Origin: Octopus vulgaris
Lineage: Eukaryota
DNA length: 64,000 bases
Reading direction: 5' to 3'
Assembly (NCBI GenBank): GCA_951406725.2
Contig: OX597830.1
Coordinates: 37,634,001-37,698,000 of the forward strand
A program made the position numbers and the translations under genes. Position 1 is the stretch's first letter. Every line of letters begins with the position of its first letter. Below, one piece after another: positions 999 to 37,991 of the stretch. Below the pieces are notes generated by a model, which worked only from the letters and a program-made list of their open reading frames with translations, was not told where the DNA came from and searched no databases.

Positions 999-2989
999 AG
1001 TCCTAACTTCTAGCAGTTCCGTTCACCAAAACTGATTAAATCCATCGAAATGTTCTTTTGAATCAAGATGTTTTTGTGAACAGCATGTAATATACGAACA
1101 TTTCCTTTGTATTTACAATGGCGAAAATCAATTGTTTTAATGTCAGTTGTAGATTGCAATTATCTCTCTTTTAAAATACACAACTTAATGTTGATTGAGG
1201 TAACTATATTATTGACTTGAAATTAATTCTTTGTGAACATAAAATGATAGTAAAGTTCTAAAGAGTCAGTCGATTAAATTATTTAAAATGAAAATTACAA
1301 AAAAAAAATTAAAATAAACAAGAACAATGAACTGGATCTTCAAATTTAAACTTTATGCTGGCTGAACGTATAATCAAAGGAATGTCTAAAGAGCATAAAG
1401 AATGCGCTGAGCAAAAATTGTATCTTTTCGCAAGTGAAATATGTAATTATTTGGCAAAAGAGAAAATTGTGAAGCCTATTTAATTCACTGTATTTCCGAC
1501 AGCGGTGTTCAGGAAAATGTGTCACGAAGACATCAGTTTAATGGCATTCAATTTAATGCTGTTTTCCGTCGCTTTCTCGCTATTCATGCTATGAAACAAA
1601 AGCTAAATTATACATTGTCTGTATTGTTCTTACGATGCTTATTGGAACTATACGCATTCGTTCGAACTGCTAGAAATAACTACCAAACATTCTTTAAACC
1701 ACGCACTACCGTCTAGAAAATTGGCAAGGTGTACCTACACTAAGAATAATATAGGAACATCTAGACTTAAATATTTTTGTTCATAGGTCTGATCAACTAG
1801 GATTGATATCGGATTGTGCAACGGATACAACGGCACAAAACGTCGAGTATTGCTTATGCATGAGCAAATCAAATAGAATATAGTTAACTTGGATTGTATT
1901 CTGTTGTTTTCGTCTACGTTGAGAGAAAAGACTTTAAATTTTGATTCTATGATTTTAAAAACTCTTCGAATTTGTGGACCTACGATGAAACATGGAGGAT
2001 ATTGATGAAAATATCTCACCATCGTATACTGGATATAGATGTAACAGTAACTAAAGCTGTATTAGAGTTGTATTTTGGTTTTGCTTTAATTTATCTTGGT
2101 ACAGAAACATAGAGGTTTCAGCGACACACCGCCTTAATCACGCGTCCAGATGCGGGATATTTTTAACTATATCGTTATGACTTCAGTAAATTTTTATGAC
2201 TTCGGGAGATTTCCGTATAATTCAACTACTGAAATATTAAACACAGTAAAACCTATTAATGGAGAGTTGTATATATTAAATATAACTATCAGACTTACGT
2301 TTTGTACGCTGCTAGCAAGGTTTTATTTTTTAGAAATAATATTAATTAACAAGGTCGAAATGATATTTGCACCATTACGTGATAGACGCAGTTAATGCCG
2401 TTGATGTTCAGTTTCAACAGCTGTATAGCAACATCTGGACGATAGACATGAGTCGAGATAAGTAATGAACATATGGGCTCCAGCTGGTTTTGTTAGCGGA
2501 TGTGAAAAAAATGAGGTGTGTAACGCGGGGAAGGATGAAGGAAGGTTTTACAAATACAGCGAGTTTCAAAAGTGTACAGGCCGACCGTTTTAGCAGTGAC
2601 AGGAGAGAATATCTTGGTAGCACCGTCACAAATTTAAGAATAATATTTTAATATAGATCACGTACGTGTTCAGTACAGAATCATGAACTGATAGCAACTG
2701 TTGTAGGTTACTAGCCAATATAAGGTGTATATCGTTGTAGGTTGCTAGATATTGTTTGGGTATTGTTTGGGATGCAGCTATTGTAATATGAGATTGGCAG
2801 CCGACATCATTAGAGACTGAATACCAGCTGTTTAAAGACCGTAAAAACTTACACTCATGTCATGTTGCCATTAAAAATGTGTACTGATGAAACGAGCGGG
2901 ACTCCCATGTATTAAGTGCAATGTTTCAAGAGTTGAATACTGATGAATTGATGTATCTATACGGTTCTATATTTAAGAGATGAGGAATT

Positions 2990-3276: not shown

Positions 3277-6200
3277 TATGTTTGACTTTTGCTTTATATT
3301 TGTACAAGTTGGCTCCAAGTCTCACCCAGAGACCTCAAGAGACAACAGGGTTGGAAGTTCATGTTGTTGTTATGCCTAGTGTGCCATATATTTGGGGGGT
3401 GGGGATGTTGTACTAATGAATGTCTAAAAAAAAAAAAAAAAAAAGGTTTTTTTTTTTTGGTTTTTTTTTTAAACCGAAAATTATGTTTGTTTTAAACCTT
3501 GAGATTACATAGAGAGTATTTTGCGTAGGATATGAGCAGTTCCCATGAGCACTATCTTTTGAACTTCTGCCATTTTTGGGTTTCCTGGTATCTGAGTTAG
3601 GTAGCTATCAGCCCCTTTTGCTATCATTCCCAGGGCACCTATGACAACAGGTATTGTTTTAGTCTTCAGCTTCCACATTTTGCTGATTTCTATTTCAAGA
3701 TCTTTATATTTGCTCAGTTTTTGGTAGGTCTTGACAGATACGTTTATATCGATTGGGACAGTCATATCAATGAGGAGGCATGTTCTTTGTTTGAAGTTTT
3801 TCAATATGATGTCTGGCCTATTTGCATCTATCTTCCGGTCAGTTTGAATGGTGAAGTTCCAGAGGAGTGAGATGTGGTCATTTTCAAGCACTGGGGGTGG
3901 TTTGTGTTCCCACCAGTTTTTTTCATGGGGCAAATCCAGGTTTTTACAGATTACCCAGTGAATATATTGTGCAGCTCTATCGTGCCTGTTGAGATACTCT
4001 GTAGGCGCTAGAAGACTGCACTTGGAGACCACATGGTCAATGGTTTCATTTTGTTGCTTGCATACACGACACGTTGGACTGCTTCTGATCTTTAATATGT
4101 TGGCCTGGTAGTTTCTTGTTGGTAGGCATTGATCTTGAGCTGCTATGATAAACCCCTCTGTTTCAGATTTTAAGCCAGAGGCCATTAGCCATTGATGGGT
4201 CAGGGCTTTGTCGATATCTGCATTATTCGCTCTCTTTGGGTATTTGCCATAGAGAGGTTTTTCTTGCCATTTATTATTCAGAATATCTAAGGCCGCAGTT
4301 TTGGCACGGGTTTTCATGCGCCTAGCTTTTTCTGTGCTTGTTTCTTGTATATCTATCTCCGAAATTGGTTGTATTCGGAATTCACTTAGATATTCCTTTG
4401 CCTGTTTTGTGACTGAGTATGATGCTTTCTTGTTTTCATGTTTTGAGACAAGTTTTAGCATCCAGTCCTCAGAGTTTTTCAGGTAGGTGTCTAGGCCAAT
4501 TGTAGCAATCTTCATTGTTATTGCCAGTTGCAAAAGACCACGGCCTCCCTCTTTTCTTGGCAGATAGAGTCGTTCTGTATCTGCCTTAGGGTGGTGCATT
4601 CTATGCATTGTCAACAGTTTCCTTATTTTTCTGTCGAGCTGACATATTTCAGTAATTGACCAGTTAACAATATTGAAACTGTAAGTCACGACTGGTATAG
4701 CTAATGCATTGATTGCTTCGATCCTGTTTCTTGCATTCAGCTCTGTCTTGAGTATTGCTCTCACTCTTCGATAGCATTCTCTCCTGATCCTTTCCTTCAT
4801 CTCTGAATGCCTTATTCCGTTCCCTTCAATTATCCCTAGGTACTTGTAGCTCTCCGCTGGGTCTAGTTCTTTTATGACATTCTGTTGGTCAAGGTTAACG
4901 TTAGATGTTTCTGTCATTTTTCCTTTGATAAAGGTAGCCTTTGCACATTTATCGAGGCCGAATTGCATTCTGATGTCGTCACTGAATTGTTTGACTATCG
5001 CTAGTAAGCCCTTGAGTTGTTGATCATTTTTTGCAAAAAGCTTTAAATCATCCATGTAAACGAGATGATTTATATTTTTATCAAACATTTTATACCCGTA
5101 CTGCGCGTCATTGAGCAGCTTTGAGAGAGGTATTAAGGATAAACAAAAGAGGAGTGGTGACAGTGAGTCACCCTGGAAAATGCCACACGAAATTTTTACA
5201 TCACCAGCATTTAGGAATTCACTGTCACTGTTCAGAGTTAGTGTGGTTCTCCATGATCTCATACTTACAGTCAAGAAGTTTCGCAGAGTTGGTGCTATCT
5301 TATACATTTCAAGGCATTTTCTAATCCAGCTATGTGGTAGGCTATCAAAAGCCTTTTTATAGTCTATCCAGGCTATTGATAAGTTTTTGTGTCGTTTGTG
5401 ACAATCTTCTAAGATCATCTTATTGATGAGTAGTTGGTCTTTACAGCCGTAGGATCCACGTTTACATCCTTTCTGTTCATTAGGGAATATGCTGCTGTCT
5501 GTTAAAAAACTATAGGTATATTCCGTCAGGACAGATGTTAGTGTTTTGTACATAGTTGTTAAGCAAGTTATGGGTCTATAGTTTTTTGGTTCATTTGTTT
5601 CTTCACTTTTTGGAAGCAGGAATGTTAACCCATTAACTAGCCAAGGAGGCATCCTACTAGGGTGTTGCAAAACATCATTGTACAGTTCTGTTAGCAGTTC
5701 ATGGCTCTCTGGGAAGGCATTCAGCCAGAAGTTAGGAATTTTATCCTTTCCTGGAGACTTCCATTTGCTTGACCTCCTGAGAGCAGATCTTATATCTTCT
5801 ACCTTGACACCCTCCCACTTTTGCTCTTCTAAGGGGTCCAGTTCTGTAGATATTCTGTCAATCCAGGGGGCCTTTTCGTTGTGTGTTTTTTCTTCTGCCC
5901 AGATTTTATTCCAAAATCTCTGCACTTCTTCTTTTGATGGTACAGACCCTGCAGTAAACGCTGTTTTTCCTATCTTCCGGTAAAAATTCTTGGTGTTATT
6001 TTTGAACATGTTGTTGTCCTTGAAAAATCTAACACGCTTTTCATACCTCGCTATGCGGGCAGCTTTGGCAGATACCTTTTGTTTGATGGTTTCTATGGTG
6101 GCATCAATATCAAGTATAGTTTTCATATTGTATTTTTTCAGTAATTTTTGGGTTTTTGTAGGTTTGGTAATCTTGTGAGCCTTAAGGTTTTTCAAATATT

Positions 6201-8226
6201 CAATGTCAGATCTAAATATTTTAATTTGTTGTTGCAGACGCTCTTGCCAAGAAGGCTTTTTGTGGGACTGTTGCCGTTTTCTAATCTTTACACCACATAA
6301 GATCGTTGAGATTTTCGCGGATGCATAGTATAGGTGGTTGAGGTTTGTGATATCAACATCATTAACTGAAATTATATCCTTAAGTGCAAGCCGGATTTTA
6401 CCAATTATTTTCATGTTTTGGTTAGAGTTGCGGATTTTAGGAAGTGTATCACGCTCATCCATGCTGGTTTCTTTAATTTTCAGCCATTCAATCATGATTT
6501 GATTTTTTAGCTCATGTAGTTCTGTTGGGTCAATATTTGTGTGACTTTCTTTATCTATTTGATGCTCATCTGTCTTAGTGTTTATGATTGGTTCAGGGCG
6601 TATTTCACTTTGCCTATCACTTATACTAACTCTTTCAATCCTCTCTTCGTTTTTATCCGCCCTGGGCTGGTCTATAATCATTTCCTCTGTATTATCTTCT
6701 CTAGCTGCAGCTTCGTTCATTTTATCCGATATTGCTTGTCTAACCTGATCAATCTCTACTTCAGTCAGTAATTTCTTTTTTATAATGTTTCTTCTAACAT
6801 TGGCAAGCTTGTTACTGTCTATGTAGGGTCTTACTTCAGGGTGTTTCTGTCTCCAGTTTAAGTATGCTTGTACAGTGCTAGACTTATCTGTGGGGAAATA
6901 TATGGCATGGTAGAAGGCCTCAAGAACTTCTTTATTATCTTCCCTAGACCATTTTTCCTTCTTTTTCTTTTGATTATTTGGTGATGAGCATGGATGGCCA
7001 TCTGTTGGAATATTCCGGTTGTGGGGTTCGTCCAGCTCCTGTGTGTTGGGAAGATTTGATCCAGTAACTGATTTTTCAATCAGGATTTGGTTCAATTTTC
7101 GGGTACGTGGTCTTTTGTAATCCGCGCAATGACCAATGCGGTTTATTGTTTGATTTGTTGACCTTGAAGCATGACGAGCATCCATTCTTATATTAGGAGA
7201 TGGATCTGTCAGTTTAGGGTTCACTACGTGTAAGCATTGCTCATAGCGCCGCTTCTTAAGACTAGCAGATCTATATTCGTCTGTATTTTTTTTGTTGATA
7301 GTTTTATCTCCGGACATTTTTTTTTTTTTTTTTTTCCTTTCCTCCTCTTCCTTTCTTCAAGGCTTACTGTGTCTGTATTAGTTCGAAATAATGAGAATAA
7401 AATACGGAGAAGGAAACGAAAAGAAAGGGAAAAAGACGGGATCTGTCAGTTATTATTGTTATTACTATCATCTTCACCACCATCACCATCATCAGCAACA
7501 TCACCATCACCATCATCATCTTCAATGACATTGTTTTATGTGTAGCCACAGCCACCATCAACACTCCATTGTGTTGGAGAATGGGTGGTTAAAGAATTCA
7601 TGTTCTTTGGGTCTATAAATAGCCACGGTAGATGGAGACAAAGGACGTTAATGGTCAGTAAAAGGTCAAACCTGTTTACGTTTATTTATTTATTTATTTT
7701 TTTTTTTCCTTTCTCTTTTCTTCTTCACCACATGCATATGTATATGTATATATATGTATATTCACTCACACATATTATCTGATGTTTTCGTCGAAGATTT
7801 TTTTTTCTTTTTTAAATAACTTTCTGAGTTCAATGTTATGTATATATTTTTAAATTTCTGAATTCAGTTGTATGTATATAGTAGTAGGTGCTTAATTCCA
7901 TAACTTTTTATCGTGCATTTAATTGTGTTGTTACAATAAAAGGTAATTTAAAAGGCAATTTTACACATTCTTATAGTCATGAGAGACGACTAAATGTAAA
8001 TGTTCACACAGAATTGGAGATATTTATGTTTCTAATTTTTCTTGTTAGGTGTACGTTTGTATGAGCTGTAGATATGTAAGTTTTTTTTTACTTATTTTGA
8101 GGGTAATTCAAATTACTTACAGTAAACAGTAGATCTTCCAGTTTTCTACAGTTGACCTGCTGGGTTCGCTGTTGCCAGTTCAGAGCATCGTAAAAATACG
8201 TCCATCCTCTGTCACGTCCAGCCGCC
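3276..8226 (-). mobile_element. R4/Dong-clade non-LTR retrotransposon, probably full length (5' boundary inferred)
   Basis: Single RT-RLE ORF; ~230-bp 3' UTR ending directly in (AAT)n at 3275; next pure (AAT)n tract upstream at 8227-8285 taken as the 5' limit. Confidence 0.7.
3505..7317 (-). CDS. Non-LTR retrotransposon polyprotein: reverse transcriptase + CCHC zinc knuckle + restriction-like endonuclease (R4/Dong type), 1270 aa, uninterrupted
   Basis: RT motifs KSPGKD, NYRPITCL, WIDYKKAFDS, GIFQGDSLSPLLF, YMDD, YKYLG; CRVCKQQNETIDHVVSKC; RHD; RPDIIL..LLIDMTVP..KLSKYKDL; N-terminal KWSREDNKEVLEAFY typical of R4/Dong. Confidence 0.95.
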   Translation of the reverse strand: MSGDKTINKKNTDEYRSASLKKRRYEQCLHVVNPKLTDPSPNIRMDARHASRSTNQTINRIGHCADYKRPRTRKLNQILIEKSVTGSNLPNTQELDEPHNRNIPTDGHPCSSPNNQKKKKEKWSREDNKEVLEAFYHAIYFPTDKSSTVQAYLNWRQKHPEVRPYIDSNKLANVRRNIIKKKLLTEVEIDQVRQAISDKMNEAAAREDNTEEMIIDQPRADKNEERIERVSISDRQSEIRPEPIINTKTDEHQIDKESHTNIDPTELHELKNQIMIEWLKIKETSMDERDTLPKIRNSNQNMKIIGKIRLALKDIISVNDVDITNLNHLYYASAKISTILCGVKIRKRQQSHKKPSWQERLQQQIKIFRSDIEYLKNLKAHKITKPTKTQKLLKKYNMKTILDIDATIETIKQKVSAKAARIARYEKRVRFFKDNNMFKNNTKNFYRKIGKTAFTAGSVPSKEEVQRFWNKIWAEEKTHNEKAPWIDRISTELDPLEEQKWEGVKVEDIRSALRRSSKWKSPGKDKIPNFWLNAFPESHELLTELYNDVLQHPSRMPPWLVNGLTFLLPKSEETNEPKNYRPITCLTTMYKTLTSVLTEYTYSFLTDSSIFPNEQKGCKRGSYGCKDQLLINKMILEDCHKRHKNLSIAWIDYKKAFDSLPHSWIRKCLEMYKIAPTLRNFLTVSMRSWRTTLTLNSDSEFLNAGDVKISCGIFQGDSLSPLLFCLSLIPLSKLLNDAQYGYKMFDKNINHLVYMDDLKLFAKNDQQLKGLLAIVKQFSDDIRMQFGLDKCAKATFIKGKMTETSNVNLDQQNVIKELDPAESYKYLGIIEGNGIRHSEMKERIRRECYRRVRAILKTELNARNRIEAINALAIPVVTYSFNIVNWSITEICQLDRKIRKLLTMHRMHHPKADTERLYLPRKEGGRGLLQLAITMKIATIGLDTYLKNSEDWMLKLVSKHENKKASYSVTKQAKEYLSEFRIQPISEIDIQETSTEKARRMKTRAKTAALDILNNKWQEKPLYGKYPKRANNADIDKALTHQWLMASGLKSETEGFIIAAQDQCLPTRNYQANILKIRSSPTCRVCKQQNETIDHVVSKCSLLAPTEYLNRHDRAAQYIHWVICKNLDLPHEKNWWEHKPPPVLENDHISLLWNFTIQTDRKIDANRPDIILKNFKQRTCLLIDMTVPIDINVSVKTYQKLSKYKDLEIEISKMWKLKTKTIPVVIGALGMIAKGADSYLTQIPGNPKMAEVQKIVLMGTAHILRKILSM

Positions 8227-16645: not shown

Positions 16646-19210
16646 GCTGAGATCTTCCAAATGTAGATTTATCTTTTTCAGTATCAGATAATGTTTCTTT
16701 TTCTTAGTTTTTACTAGGAAATTTAAAGACAGCTACAACAGAATATGAACGAAATAACGAACGAAAAGAGTCTGAGTATTTTCCCCTGCGTACCAACGTT
16801 ACTTCCAATTTGCCGCCTCAGGAATTTGATATTGACACTCTTATTTATGGACAGATCTTTTAACACACATTTTGGGAGTATTTATAAATAAATTTTCCAA
16901 AGTTCTCAAACTTCGAAACATATGCTCGGAAAGAGAAGAGTATAAATTTTATTAGTACCTAAATTTAATACAAAACAAAAAAAAGTAGGCTAAATAAACA
17001 CATGCAGAGAAACTAAATATAATGAATAGTACAGAGGAAGTGAACCACAAATTGAAAAATAGCCCCAAGCCCAAAATTCTAAAAGCAATAATGCAATAAT
17101 GTTACAGAAGTTAATTTCATGATGTAAAAAGTATCAATATATTCATAAATTAAATTCCCTTGACAATTAAGAAGAGATATAATCAATGGAAAACAAGACT
17201 GGGTCAAATAGAAAAATGGCGAAATAGTAGAGTCTTTGTATGTATATATAAACTAGACATAATCTGTGAGAGATTTTCAGACGTATGTTGTATTTCTTCT
17301 CCATTTAAAAGATGTAGAAATATTATGTCTGGGATTAGTCTGCAGAAACATTTAGGATTATTTTTTAATATTTCATAAAATCTGTCTGATAGAGAAACAA
17401 GACAAAAGTGAAGATAAAAAGTTTATGATATTATTCTTCCACTAACATTCTGAAAGTAATTATATGAAATTGCGCAAGATTCCAAGTGTAGATGCTTTTA
17501 AGTTCAGATTAATTAATATCTGCCTTCTATACTACAGGCAGTATAGTATTATATAATATAGATTAATGAGATATTCAAAGAATTACGTCAGAGGAAATCT
17601 TCCTTTTTTTATTTGACAATCTCCTTCATAGACCAGAAAATATATTGTATGTGACAAATATTCAACAATACTTTTTCTTGAGATTCCATCGTCTAACATT
17701 TTCCTAATAACTATAGCACGTCTAAGCTTGTAAAAACAACATGTTGTCATTCATATAAGGAAACTCATCGAAATCTTATCTTTTGTTATGAAATACAATC
17801 TTCTCCAGTTGGATTTTAACTGTTAGATGTATATATTCTTCTGATACTAATACTAATGATTCGTAAAACAAGCCACGTGGGCTTTCACGCATAGACCATC
17901 GTTGAAATCTTTCTCCGTTATATATATCTATTACTAAAAATCACAGGATAGAAAAAGACTATTTATTTCTACGCGTTTCTATACTTTACATTTTCTATGT
18001 AATGACGGAGCATTATGCTTTTCCAAATTTTACAATGTCATACCAGTCAGGTATTTGGTTTAACTTGACTGAGAGCTCGCCCGTTGTTGAGGTCATGTAC
18101 CACTAATAAATGAACTGCACGGATAAAATCGCTTAACTGTCGTTCTGTACTTAAGACTCAGTCACTATTTGAATATGGGATATTAAAGGCGCGTTTTATT
18201 ATTTAAAATCAGGTCAATCTTAATTAATATGTTGAATATGTATAACAGGTAGAGCACGAGTTAAATAATATTGTGGAATTATCTTGAACGAAAATTGTAA
18301 ATCATTATCCACATAAAGAAAATAAAATTCTGAAACACCCCATATAAAACAAGTTTTTTGTTAATTGTCATAATATCTGAAGACAAGAGATTATTACAGT
18401 AAATGTCATAAAACAACAATTAGTTTCTGTTTCAAATTTCAATAATCTAGACTGGCTTCTGGCACATTCCATAAACCGTCGTATATTTTCCTCCTCTGAC
18501 TAATTGTAGTCACAACTATGAATGCTGGCCCACGTCTATGTGATACATAGCTTTTTCAAACCTACATTGCTACAAATCAATTGAAGAAGCTGCTTCCTTT
18601 AGTTGTTTGGCGACACAATATATCCCTGTCGAAATTCCTACACATTGACATTACTTGCGTTAATTTATCATAATTCAATAATCAAATGATAAATCTTGGA
18701 ATAATTTCGGAAAATGTGGTTTCAAGGTAATTTCCATTAATAATACTTGCATTTTTCTGACTAGAAGGCCCTGGCATGGCAGATGTTTTGTTATAGATTG
18801 CTTAATTTGACATCGTGTATTAGCTATCATGTAATTTATGGAGTTGGGTTGAAAAGCACGTATGTGTTATCGACTTTTATAATATACTGACACCTTAATT
18901 TCATTTCTGAACAACGATATCATCTATCAGAAGGTTGTATTACTCTGAATAATAATGTGGCAGACTATATGCTTCACAAAATTCATTCCCATCTCATTCT
19001 TATTTTTATTTTTTTACCTCAGCAAAGAGCCCTAGCCATGCTGGAGCACCACTGCCTCCACTTAGATGAATAATTAAACAAATGGATGCCTATGCTTATT
19101 ATCGATCTGTTACGTATTTTGCCCACGTTCTTCTTGTTTTCTTTTTGTGTTTTTGCCACAAAGCTAAGTTATAAGGATCTAAATAAACTAACACTATATA
19201 TATATACGTA

Positions 19211-19319
<109 letters not shown>

Positions 19320-19340
19320 GTATATATATATATACTTTAT

Positions 19341-20703
19341 TTTACCACACACCGAACTTTTAGAAATAGCAGCCAAAAATTTTTAGCGATTTCCTTTACG
19401 ATAAGAAAAGTCTCCCAGACAATGTATACTCAAAAATAATTCACGCAGGTATAGAGGGAAAAATAACGAAAGATCACACGTACATCGATTACTTGAGAAC
19501 GCCGTTTCTGGATTAGTTGGATATAGAGAACAACATTTCCGCCATCAACCCACGATTTCTTTAGATTTGGATTTGAGAGCACTAAAAATCGAACATACCC
19601 GTCTGATATGAGTAATCCCAGAAAAACCATCTTCGACCGCTAGTACTAACGAATTCAAAAAGTACGAATGAGACTCCGTAACCTCCCTCGTCCACCCACG
19701 TGTGTTATAGAGCAGTAAGTCGCTACAGAGGGATCTGTAGTTTATTATCAGGGAGAGAGAATTATATTGTCAATAATAAAAGGGTAAAATTAATTAATTA
19801 TTAATTATCAATTTTACAAAGTAGTGTTCAGTATGTAAAAATACCATTTACGGTATATTTAAAACATTACGTTATATAATTAGGGTTCAGTAAAATAATT
19901 TACTTTACCACACACCGAAATTTTAGAAATAGCAGCCCAAAAAGTTTAGCTATTTCCTCTACTATAAGAAAAGTCTCCCAGACAATGCATACTCAAAAAT
20001 AATTCAGTAAAGTAAATTATTTTACTGAACCCTAATTATATAACGTAATGTTTTAAATATACCGTAAATGGTCTTTTTACATACTGAACATTACTTGGTA
20101 AAATTGATAATTAATAATTAATTAATTTTACCCTTTTATTATTGACAATATAATTCTCTCTCCCTGATAATAAACTACTGATCCCTCTGTAGCGACTTGT
20201 TGCTCTATCACTCACGTGGGTGAACGAGGGAGGTTACGGAGTCTCATTCGTACTTTTTGAATTCGTTAGTACTAGCGGTCGAAGATGGTTTGTCTGGGTT
20301 TACTCATATCAGACGGGTATGTTCGATTTTTAGTGCTCTCAAATCCAAACCTAAAGAAATCTTGGGCTGATGACGGAAATGTTGATCTCTATATCCAATT
20401 AATCCAGAAACGGCGTTCTCAAGTAATCGATGTACGTATGATCTTTCGTTATTTATCCCTCTATACCTGCGTGAATTATTTTTGAGTATACATTGTTTGG
20501 GAGACTTTTTCTTATAGTAGAGGAAATAGCTAAAATTTTTTGGCTGCTATTTCTAAACGTTCGGTGTGTGGTAAAGTAAATTATTCTACTGAACTCTAAT
20601 TATATAACGTAATGTTTTAAATATACCGTAAATGGTCTTTTTACATACTGAACACTACTTGGTAAAATTGATAATTAATAATTAATTAATTTTACCATTT
20701 TGT

Positions 20704-20708
<5 letters not shown>
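19341..20708. mobile_element. Inverted dimer of a ~564-bp tandem (circularly permuted) non-coding unit carrying a hammerhead; retrozyme/pLTR-like
   Basis: Left arm 19341-20006 repeats with period 563 (TTTACCACACACCGAA at 19341 and 19904); right arm 20007-20708 is the reverse complement with period 564 (GTAAAGTAAATT at 20007 and 20571). Confidence 0.85.
20361..20423 (+). ncRNA. Type-I hammerhead ribozyme motif, intact core
   Basis: CTTGGG-CTGATGA-C-GGA...TCC-A-GAAA-CGGCG-TT-CTCAAG; 6-bp stem I. The inverted copy (19492-19554, minus) has the core mutated to TTGATGG. Confidence 0.7.
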
Positions 20709-20749
<41 letters not shown>

Positions 20750-25379: not shown

Positions 25380-25506
25380 ACAAAACGAGGTATTAAACCT
25401 CTTACAATTTTTCCAATTTTTGGACTTAGCAGTCCATTATTAATACAAAACGAGGTATTAATCCTCTTACAATTTTTCAATTTTTGGACTTAAGTCCATT
25501 ACTAAT
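25380..25506. repeat. ~65-bp tandem duplication at the ORF1 stop / 3' UTR
   Basis: ACAAAACGAGGTATTAA.CCTCTTACAATTTTT...TGGACTTA..GTCCATTA.TAAT at 25380 and 25445. Confidence 0.9.
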
Positions 25507-26747
25507 AATACATATCGTCCTCGAAATAGCTTGTGCCCGCGCCCTCCACCATCAACCACGCCTCCCTCAGAACGTAATCAAGTTCCGAGTTCGCGTCGCC
25601 CGGGACCAAGTTATAATCTTCATTGAGCTCCTTTAGCCCAAGCGTCACGTCGAACGCCACGGCCTCTACAGCTACCTGCGGAGGCCATTCGGGGTCATGT
25701 GTGAAGTCTAAAGGTGCTCCCTTGTAGTGCTCTTCTATCACTTTTTCAATTTCTCCTCCTCTATAGAAGAGAACCAATACGTTCAGTTCTTTCGTTGGCG
25801 GCACAGTTCCCACCAACGGTATTCCTTCTCTTGTCGGTGGCACAACCCCAACCGACGTAGTTCCGGGACATTTCGGTGCTATACTGACAGCCGGCAATGT
25901 CCCGTTTTTCTTCCTCTTTTTCTTTTTTTTTCCCTTTTCAACTGAGGGAGGGTGCGTCTCCTCCGTGGCTGGAAGATTCGCCTTCCTCTCCTCATCCCTA
26001 TTATCCTTTGGTGAGCACCCATTGTTGCTCACCTTCCTCTTTCGGCCTCTGTTTGAGGAGTCCTCTGCTTTCTCGGTCGTTATCGTTCCCTCTTCTAGAG
26101 GGGTTTTACTTAACTGTTCCGGGATCCTATTTTGTTCCCGAGGACAGTTCTTCTTTATGTGGCCGGACTTCAAGCACCGATGACACTTAGGGGGGGCGAC
26201 CCTCAAGCATCGCCGGGTACCTGCACCCGGCCATTTTCAAAAAATCTGGAAGAACCAGATTGGCTGATTGGGTCCACAGGGTCAAAATTGCTTTTGATCC
26301 TACCCAAGCAGCCGCAGGAAGAACTTTTACATTGAGGAGCTTAGTTTCGCTGTCACCCAGACCCCGGCGGATAGTCTCCTCTATCCACTCGGGTTCTATG
26401 TCGGGTGGCAATCTGCATATCCAAGCTTTCATCAATTTCTTTTTTTTGTACGTGGGCAGGAATAAGAATTCCTTACCCTCCAGGGGTTTGCTAGCAAATT
26501 TGCAAGCCTCTTCAGGGGTGTCAAACAGCAACCACACCGTTGCATATTTGACACCCCTGGAAATGACTTTAATTGTTGGCAAATACTCTTCCAACTCCTC
26601 CTCAATTGCCGTCTTTTCGAATAAGGCGATGGTGTCGAGTGCCTTGGAGTAGGTTCTCAACACCACCGTCCTATCTTCACGGTCTTTTAACCACTTTTTA
26701 GGTGGTATGATTTCCCACTCCAAAATTTTGTTATTTTTCATTGCCAT
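25502..26747 (-). CDS. Gag-like ORF1 protein (putative RRM-like N-terminus, CCHC knuckle, basic region), ~415 aa, one frameshift at ~26190
   Basis: ORF 26187-26747 ends LEGRPP; ORF 25502-26206 continues PPKCHRCLKSGHIKKNC (CX2CX4HX4C). One extra base in a G7 run (26189-26196 region) separates them. Confidence 0.75.
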
Positions 26748-27484
26748 GTTTTTTTTTAAATATATTCAAATTAAACTCAAAAAGCGCAGGAAGAAAAAAG
26801 TTCAAAAGTTCAAATAAAATTTGATAGATTTTTGAAAAAACAAAAAGGAGAAAGCACAACATAAGGGAAGAAATCAACGGAAAGTCGCAATAAAGAAAAA
26901 AAACAAAAGGGGGGGGGTTAAATGAAGTTCAAAAGAAAGTTAATAAACAGAAAAAAAACACAGCAAAAATATTCTGGCCTTGCGGTACTCCCGGCCTGGG
27001 TTGAACCTGGAACGCCGCAACTGCAACACAACCTCCACAAAAATGGGTCCGAAAGGTAATCCAATAGTGGCTTATTTTTATAATTTTTTTGCGAAGTAGT
27101 AGTTTTCACAATTCATAAAAGTTCTTCACAGCACAATACAATTCTCACAATTACGTGAGAAAAATATTTACTCACTTTATCGAAGACGGATACGCCCCCA
27201 AAAATTTTCTCAGCGAGAAAAATATATTTGCCACATGTCGGCAGAATCAGAATTCTGAATCCAGTAGGACTTCCTGCCTGTAAAAAACAATTCTCAACAA
27301 AAACTCCCACTGGACCCAGAAAACAGAATCTTACCTTACATGGGGCTTGCAAAGTTTTCAATTCAAGACGGCTTCAATAGCACATCTTCACCGCTTCAGT
27401 GCCAAACACAACACTGACTCGCACATGCGCAGAAGCAACCGTTAGCAAGCTACTTACCACACAGCCACTCCTGCGCCTATAGAC

Positions 27485-36104: not shown

Positions 36105-37093
36105 CCTGACTATTATACAATGAAGATTGATACAACTTGTAAATGACGGGATCCACATCCCAGTAACACAAATTAATGATGTTCTAAGCCGGTGACATTT
36201 TTGTTGACGCGTAGTGCGGAAGGACACGATTAGAATTTTGCTATTAGGATCTCGAAGTCGGAAGTAATGCTTAAACGATGAAATTGCCATCGTGTTCTTA
36301 TGCCAACTTTGTCTGAAATCTTTCTTGCAGTTCAAATCAATGACAGATGACGGTATGAACCAAAGATGCATACTTCCGATTACGCTGAATACGACAAAAC
36401 AGAAAGTTGTGAGTTTTAGAAAATATTTCTCATATACTAGAATTAGAAGCGCAAGTAATTAGAAATGTGAGATATATTCTGGTGTTAAAACACTCCCATT
36501 TATCGAACGGAATAATGATCTAATGAATATTTTGAGAAAGAGGATAATATCTAAGCACATGACTGATCTGAATTTACTGAAGGAATTATGACATGCGTCC
36601 CATGATCTCGACAAATAATTTGCGTTATGTGTCTCAGTTAATGCAGTGGTGTATGAGTAACGAAAAGCCAAAACTTTGACGGTTAATGTATGCTTATGCT
36701 ATTAAACCTATCACCTTACAACATAAACAAACGAGCGAGATGGACAAATGCATTCAAACATGCACGAGATGCAGTCTGATATAGGCCTCGGTGCAGTGTA
36801 CATGACAATGAGAAGATAAACACACAGATGGTGGCTTCTGGAGTGTGTTTGTACACAGTATTTGTTGTTATATTCATTGTCTTTTATTTAATTCATCTTT
36901 TCTAATTTGAAGAAGAAACAAAAGCAATTTATATTGAAATGTACCTTGGAAGATACAAACGGCGTAATATTTTAGCATTTTTTTAATATAATAATTACAT
37001 ATTATATCAAATTTAGGCAACTTCTCTGAATAAACGACGCAGAAAAACATAATAATAATAGTGATGATGATGATGATGATGATGATGTTGACG

Positions 37094-37148
<55 letters not shown>

Positions 37149-37150
<2 letters not shown>

Positions 37151-37991
37151 TACTGGACTAAACTAAACGCAAAAGAAATAGACAAAGAAAAATCCCAGCA
37201 ATGGTTGAGAAGCTCAGGACTCAAAGCAGAAACAGAGGGATTTTTAATTGCAGCACAAGACCAAAGCCTCCCCACCAGAAATTACCAAAAACATGTAATG
37301 AAAAGAAATATTACAAGTAACTGCAGAATATGTGGAGATGGACAAGAAACAATAAATCATATTATCTCTAGCTGCCCAGTCCTGGCTAAGAAGGAATATA
37401 TTCACAGACATGACAGAGTTGGAACTTACATACATTGGAAGCTATGCCAACATTATGGAATAACAACAGAAAAAAGATGGTATAGGCACACCCCAGAAAA
37501 GGTCACAGAAAACGAGAAAGCAACCATACTCTGGGATATGCCGATACACACAGATAGAGAAATTAAGGCCAACAGACCAGATATAGTTGTCAGAGACCAT
37601 GAAGAAAAAAAATGCTTTCTAATTGATGTATCAGTACCGGCAGATGACAACGTGTCTCTAAAAGAAATGGAGAAACTCTCAAAATACAAAGACCTGGAAA
37701 TAGAGGTAACTAGAATGTGGAATCTGAAAACAGAAACAATTCCTATCATAGTAGGTGCATTAGGCATGATAAAAAAATATTCAGACAAATACATAACAAA
37801 AACACCAGGACTTACAAACACATATAACATACAGAAAATTGCACTACTGGGCACTGCACACATCCTACGCAGAACACTTTCCATACAATAACCATCAGAG
37901 CATCACAACAAATCACAGCACATACCCAAGACACACAGAGCTGTGCTCGGTAGTGAAGTGAAAGCACGCTATAAAAATAAAAATAAAACTA

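Follow-up and report, generated by a model that had tools for sequence, protein, structure and literature searches.

A noncoding hammerhead-motif repeat of Octopus vulgaris, probably written into TA microsatellites by a Penelope-like reverse transcriptase

How does a noncoding repeat with a hammerhead ribozyme motif come to lie as two more-than-unit-length copies, back to back, between TA tracts? This question is raised by a locus in a 64,000-nucleotide stretch of Octopus vulgaris DNA (contig OX597830.1, positions 37,634,001 to 37,698,000), hereafter called the window. The initial annotation described a hammerhead-bearing unit of ~564 bp, present at more than unit length in each of two divergent arms that meet at 20006/20007 without a spacer and between TA tracts, and our delimitation of the features agrees with it on all of these points (675 plus 701 nt, joined 5' to 5'). 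Phases are given as positions within one unit, window:20007-20570.

20007-20707, plus strand: right arm, 701 nt, 1.24 units, running from phase 1 to 564 and on to 137
~19332-20006, minus strand: left arm, 675 nt, 1.2 units, running from phase 466 to 564, then from 1 to 564 and on to ~14
20007-20570, plus strand: single complete 564-bp unit
20571-20707, plus strand: second round of the right arm, a terminal redundancy covering phase 1-137
20006..20007, no strand: 5'-to-5' junction of the arms, no spacer, no microhomology
19195..19334, no strand: left target flank, a (TA)n/(TATC)n microsatellite adjoining the 3' end of the left arm
20707..20749, no strand: right target flank, (TA)n
20361-20423, plus strand: type I hammerhead motif, with cleavage predicted to fall between 20417 and 20418
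19492-19554, minus strand: hammerhead of the left arm, two core positions changed

Spacings of 564 and 563 bp separate the direct repeats; matched in inverted orientation, the arms are 96% identical over 503 nt. Compared arm against arm, the copies differ at 37/790 positions (4.7%). Past the predicted cut, the right arm continues for 290 nt and the left arm for ~167 nt, each then giving way to TA; with TA repeats on both flanks, a target-site duplication is not delimitable at this locus. No contig bridging the 20006/20007 junction was found among the matches listed for contigs of four sequencing runs. An assembly artefact at the junction is unlikely, since the arms differ at the 37 positions mentioned above and the same layout is repeated in 51/89 loci. 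The window copy is likely an aged insertion, with ~5% divergence between its arms and a left ribozyme that appears to have decayed; it is old and half-dead, and shows no sign of a host role.

Elsewhere in the window, an open frame of 1283 aa with RVT_1 and zf-RVT domains (3505-7356, minus strand) lies beside a (TTA)n tract and likely belongs to an intact LINE, which we take from its motifs to be Dong/R4-like. A related LINE 3' fragment is located at 37034-37891 (plus strand). Two adjacent frames at 25502-26765 (minus strand), one of them with a weak zinc knuckle, likely correspond to a broken LINE ORF1.

We then looked into the unit itself and its relatives. It has no protein-coding capacity, as stops occur throughout the six-frame translation of the doubled unit; in particular, there is no reverse transcriptase (RT) or GIY-YIG reading frame within it, such a frame being found instead in Penelope-like elements (PLEs) that form a family apart. 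The predicted fold of the unit beats 100/100 linear shuffles (z, -4.2). A search of the 2.8-Gb genome with the unit gave 3026 first-look candidates, the best 40 of which were scored, and an exact 23-mer of the window ribozyme variant (A1) had 56 genome matches, against 0 for the control. Via two diverged neighbours, we reached two sister subfamilies of A, namely, B, which is older, and Y, which is young, measures 560 bp, and has 374 exact 27-mer matches. Removal of same-place duplicates (11/60 A and 15/55 Y) left 49 A and 40 Y loci for analysis, a sample made of the best-scoring 30 to 40 per search and hence biased toward long, young copies.

The family is also present in contigs of three further sequencing runs (labels A, C, and D). 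Among the runs listed as containing it, none was labelled RNA; the unit is likewise covered by contigs from runs that we guessed to be RNA, these contigs being uninformative on expression, ends, strand, and circles. One A-family insertion (L061:~1250-1500, minus strand) is probably old and shared, since its unique flank recurs in contigs from runs of both organism A and organism B. A loose end common to two runs, suspected of being the body of an autonomous partner, turned out to be the unique flank of one ordinary insertion, and an all-against-all comparison of the flanks of the 49 A loci revealed no shared body upstream of the unit. We found no description of the family in the literature on octopus hammerhead ribozymes, the scope of this search being the articles themselves, and the available text of the octopus repeat-annotation paper contains 0 mentions of ribozyme or retrozyme (PMC13282606).

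The hammerhead motif of the window has a 6-bp stem I, a CUGAUGA core, a GAAA motif, a 2-bp stem III, a GUU site, and a 3-nt loop; stem II has a C.A mismatch at its base, and helix III is nearly palindromic. As first annotated, its core is intact on the plus strand and mutated in the other arm; the left copy, with two core changes, is likely dead. The suggested check against the Rfam hammerhead models went the other way, as no match was obtained at the gathering score or at E<=10 (9 weak matches, none a hammerhead), and in the isolated window motif the active form is not the minimum-energy structure (-3.3 versus -9.1 kcal/mol). A parseable core is nonetheless retained in 42/52 A, 18/25 B, and 56/59 Y copies, the pattern having mis-parsed three A rows. 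Although its sequence differs among A, B, and Y, stem I still pairs in each of them; position 7 is free to vary, and helix III, with differing letters, is palindromic or nearly so across subfamilies. Each unit contains one type I motif, and its stems covary across the three subfamilies; this covariation supports a genuine, conserved hammerhead motif, for which cleavage is predicted. The window variant is the weakest, with a palindrome one base shorter in addition to its C.A mismatch and GUU site. A short palindromic helix III marks hammerheads that act as dimers (PMC4209133). In one locus (L006:1826-1966), loop II of the hammerhead carries a 21-nt insertion, and similar letters occur in loose ends of run X6.

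Evaluation of the arm ends across loci revealed a strong asymmetry. TA flanks the 3' end of 130/150 arms (69/85 A and 61/65 Y), and 119 of these 130 ends fall into two intervals located ~200 and ~290 nt past the predicted cut (A, 61/69; Y, 58/61), intervals that were set after the data were seen and that cover 12% (A) and 5% (Y) of the unit. The 5' ends are scattered, and many copies consist of a single arm. The proposal of permuted copies has therefore to be revised: in the phase plot of genomic copies, the 5' ends vary as permutation would have it, whereas the 3' ends are confined to two narrow intervals, so that permutation is not free. Back-to-back junctions are present in 28/49 A and 23/40 Y loci. 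Arms exceed one unit in 46/150 cases, and both arms do so in 1 A locus, that of the window, and in 3 Y loci.

Two features of non-autonomous PLEs are thus found in the family: a partial tandem with an inverted, 5'-truncated copy, and two fixed internal 3' ends (a "tail") with a microsatellite target. Fixed termini with terminal inverted repeats, as in DNA transposons, were not found. A tandem of at least two units with complete hammerheads, the mark of an "active" retrozyme (Li et al. 2026, bioRxiv 10.64898/2026.07.22.740005), is absent from the window copy and present in sister Y (L134 and L144), a subfamily with many tandem dimers and trimers. Single-arm Y insertions generally have TA close to both ends, which makes deletion a less likely origin for the Y/PLE joint described below. 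The 3' end of the L144 trimer is interrupted at L144:553 by another element, presumably Tc1/mariner-like, judging from its motifs.

We then analyzed which RNA may have served as the template. Successive rounds within a Y arm differ at 29/4334 positions, whereas the median difference from other loci is 2.6% (16 loci). In the 40 Y loci, with a 21-nt homopolymer excluded, 145 variant sites are covered at least twice per insertion; 66 of them are uniform in all copies, versus ~13 expected from a pool, and the remaining 79 differ within an insertion, mostly as singletons. Rare shared sites are homogenized over rounds and both arms in 25 cases in Y, and indel variants are likewise repeated across rounds and arms. 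The two arms of the window share 8 sub-lineage variants that occur in a minority of other loci, and 33 other sites differ between them, mostly rare or private; the shared variants point to a single haplotype as the source of both arms, with aging of the locus afterwards.

Arms also run across the predicted cut. All of 30 arms (26 loci), picked only by their first 90 nt past the cut, extend 32 to 644 nt upstream of it, and a 5' end lies within 5 nt of the cut in 1/150 arms. Run-off from cleaved linear monomers is excluded as the main route, since arms pass through the cut site, and what remains is a circle or an uncleaved multimer. The homogenized rare variants, together with the lack of any same-strand tandem pair among the 56 exact A1 matches, favor a one-unit bottleneck, and from these sequence patterns we lean toward a circular monomer RNA as the template. 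Reverse transcription of a circular RNA, as originally put forward, would then be favored by shared haplotypes and by copies that pass through the cut, and not by the permuted ends on which the proposal was based.

Alternatively, the same PLE mobilization could proceed from linear multimeric RNA, transcribed from a tandem source and left uncleaved, or from monomers joined by template jumps, with no circle. We consider this less likely, even though the tandem dimers and trimers of Y are possible sources and the window ribozyme is imperfect. One Y arm (L173:1118-2356) contains successive rounds with two different haplotypes; this mosaic counts against a circle, as it is impossible from a single monomer circle, and it is the sole exception among long Y arms. 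In vitro, uncleaved RNA was the dominant substrate of an anole PLE, with no reads ending at the cut site in the data described (PMC11167929), and 8/9 frog retrozyme dimers were reported to stay uncleaved (bioRxiv 10.64898/2026.07.22.740005). Against a linear template, the 25 homogenized sites imply a one-unit bottleneck per lineage, within-insertion differences seldom recur between loci (7 phases recur), and A1 has arms longer than one unit although its 56 exact matches include no tandem pair. Shared variants within Y insertions (L121-L174) show an A-to-G excess (11/37 versus 8/79, P = 0.01; strand test, P = 0.07), which is weak and possibly reflects RNA editing of the template.

A candidate enzyme was identified via a fragment beside L024. 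It belongs to a young family of PLEs in which many frames of 1310 to 1312 aa are open; the encoded protein combines an RT with a C-terminal GIY-YIG-like domain. Insertions of this family lie in TA targets, show inverted arms and seamless redundancy, and have their 3' ends at two positions separated by 56 nt. We regard a PLE as the likely mobilizer of the unit because its two fixed 3'-end intervals, TA targets, and back-to-back arms are all also seen in the young PLE. The sequences themselves are unrelated, as we detected no similarity between the unit and the intact family (local score of 25, with 171/200 shuffles equally high) or between the unit and the pLTRs of autonomous PLEs in the two related families compared. 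Given this dissimilarity to the one intact family tested, the true partner of the unit may be another PLE family; 31 recently active PLE families are listed for octopus (PMC13282606).

The young PLE is represented by L082:2301-7440 and by many further places in G000, and is very young. Within its terminal repeat lie a minimal motif resembling a hammerhead, in which core position 9 is C, and also a microsatellite, copied together with the element. A protein labelled Octopus vulgaris shows 99% identity to a PLE of this genome. Protein P0026, named dynein regulatory complex subunit 6-like, matches the PLE at 98% identity across 21% of the query, and the gene model behind it probably incorporates PLE sequence. 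An element of 188 bp is common to L024:2278-2465 and L046:1923-2109 (91%); it carries a GAAA motif and a long hairpin, adjoins the TA tail of the unit, abuts a PLE RT fragment in L024, and is likely a terminal repeat from an older family of PLEs.

One locus physically links unit and PLE. In L159, a Y arm lies back to back with 57 nt of Y, followed by 237 nt of the young-PLE terminal repeat and then TA. The Y/PLE joint, found in 1/40 Y loci, coincides with a GAG microhomology and lies inside one TA-bounded insertion; querying the genome with the PLE terminal repeat for further chimeras gave no matches, probably owing to words that are too frequent in that repeat. A template switch during one insertion would produce such a joint, which remains suggestive only, because a later insertion followed by deletion can make similar joints, as in three A loci where cut arms are joined to LINE 5' ends (L007:2156, L033:1747, and L051:1847) and the remainder of the arm is absent within 9.7 kb. 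A PLE piece near L126 was rejected as a chimera, being a separate insertion ~330 bp off.

These three loci might also suggest that a LINE (Dong/R4-, Tx1-, or R2-like) supplies the RT, with twin priming yielding the inversions, and LINEs are indeed abundant, some of them intact, including one within the window. We regard this origin as very improbable, since, as in the PLE, the two internal start sites are the same for both arms and each arm ends in TA, and no poly(A) or LINE-like 3' tail was seen at any listed arm end. A DNA-level repeat (a fold-back element or MITE, or a satellite dispersed through recombination) or a fold-back created in assembly would account for the resemblance to a long inverted repeat and for the missing junction contig among the matches listed, and can be practically dismissed, given the unfixed termini and many single-arm copies, the strand polarity of scattered 5' and fixed 3' ends, the covariation of the RNA motif, and the 4.7% divergence and unequal starting phases of the arms.

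We thus return to mobilization by a PLE and consider it likely, from the pattern of insertions, that the locus belongs to a noncoding hammerhead-motif repeat written into (TA)n by a PLE RT acting in trans, from one RNA that is probably a circular monomer. In this scheme, a copy longer than one unit would be transcribed, its hammerheads would cut, probably as dimers via the palindromic helix III, and the monomer would be ligated. The PLE endonuclease would then nick both (TA)n strands, and each 3' end would prime at one of two internal UA-rich sites, ~200 or ~290 nt past the cut. Each cDNA would proceed upstream through the cut site and stop at random, and the two cDNAs would be joined 5' to 5'. 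Finally, the window copy would have aged to ~5% divergence between its arms, with decay of the left ribozyme. Against this scheme, the window hammerhead is imperfect (C.A mismatch, GUU site, and 3-nt loop) and has no Rfam match.

The locus would accordingly be one that appears to work like a non-autonomous PLE and that fits a non-LTR retrozyme in its sequence features. The initial view of a retrozyme-like, noncoding hammerhead retroelement is upheld as to the type of retroelement, cleavage and circle being predicted. More tentatively, and with somewhat less than even confidence, we propose that a PLE RT dimer loads one hammerhead-made circle, primes from both nicked (TA)n strands at two fixed sites, and rolls past the ligation point, in trans on an RNA unlike its own, with L159 recording a switch from PLE RNA to the circle. 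If true, this would name an enzyme and the template with which it carries out the rolling-circle target-primed reverse transcription of animal retrozymes.

How does the octopus family compare with the systems described in the available text of the sources cited here? A circular template and mobilization by PLEs have already been proposed for animal retrozymes (PMC4209133 and PMC7229834), with the suggestion that copies of more than unit length are templated by ligated circles (Cervera and de la Pena 2014, PMC4209133). A 2026 preprint supports a PLE origin by co-occurrence and pLTR homology and leaves the mechanism to be worked out (bioRxiv 10.64898/2026.07.22.740005). We found no description of two-strand priming from one retrozyme RNA in the literature, searched at the level of articles.

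Like metazoan non-LTR retrozymes, the octopus element is noncoding, structured, and rich in AT, has a single type I hammerhead per unit, occurs in head-to-tail copies, and coexists with PLEs. Unlike them, it is mostly found as dispersed back-to-back pairs of 1 to 3 units in (TA)n, with two fixed 3' ends, an arrangement not described in the available text of those reports. At 564 bp, it exceeds the units of 150 to 450 bp reported for metazoan non-LTR retrozymes (PMC7229834), including those of mussel, coral, and axolotl, and lies within the retrozyme range of 51 to 972 bp given more recently (Li, Clavereau and Pollet 2026, bioRxiv 10.64898/2026.07.22.740005), so that the claim of a monomer longer than known metazoan retrozymes stands against the former range and falls against the latter. 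In Xenopus, 24/57 retrozyme families are homologous to repeats, nearly all PLEs, whereas the octopus unit has no pLTR homology to the PLE tested.

EN+ PLEs leave partial tandems with an adjacent inverted truncated copy and target microsatellites (Craig et al. 2021, PMC8557442), and a purified PLE nicks and extends both strands and has two internal starting points on the RNA (Frangieh et al. 2024, PMC11167929). The octopus unit resembles them in its partial tandems, in the inverted, 5'-truncated copy at the 5' end, in its microsatellite targets, and in two internal start sites downstream of the hammerhead, with both strands apparently cut and extended. It differs in having no ORF and in start sites ~90 nt apart, versus 30 to 40, and its ends overlap TA-like bases, whereas the start site of the anole PLE is not homologous to the target. 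With the PLE and amphibian hammerheads, it shares a short palindromic helix III requiring a dimer (PMC4209133); in contrast to those hammerheads, helix II is long in A and B, where it contains an internal loop and is mismatched at its base, and Y has a paired base instead and a longer helix III.

The octopus insertions supply base-level predictions, namely, that copying starts at two sites, is primed by TA, uses a single template for both arms, and continues through the cut site. The young sister unit L144 and the intact candidate enzyme P0002 make the PLE-retrozyme question testable in a published in vitro assay, and the value of the system would lie in this testable enzyme-template pair and in the mapped start sites, rather than in the aged copy of the window.
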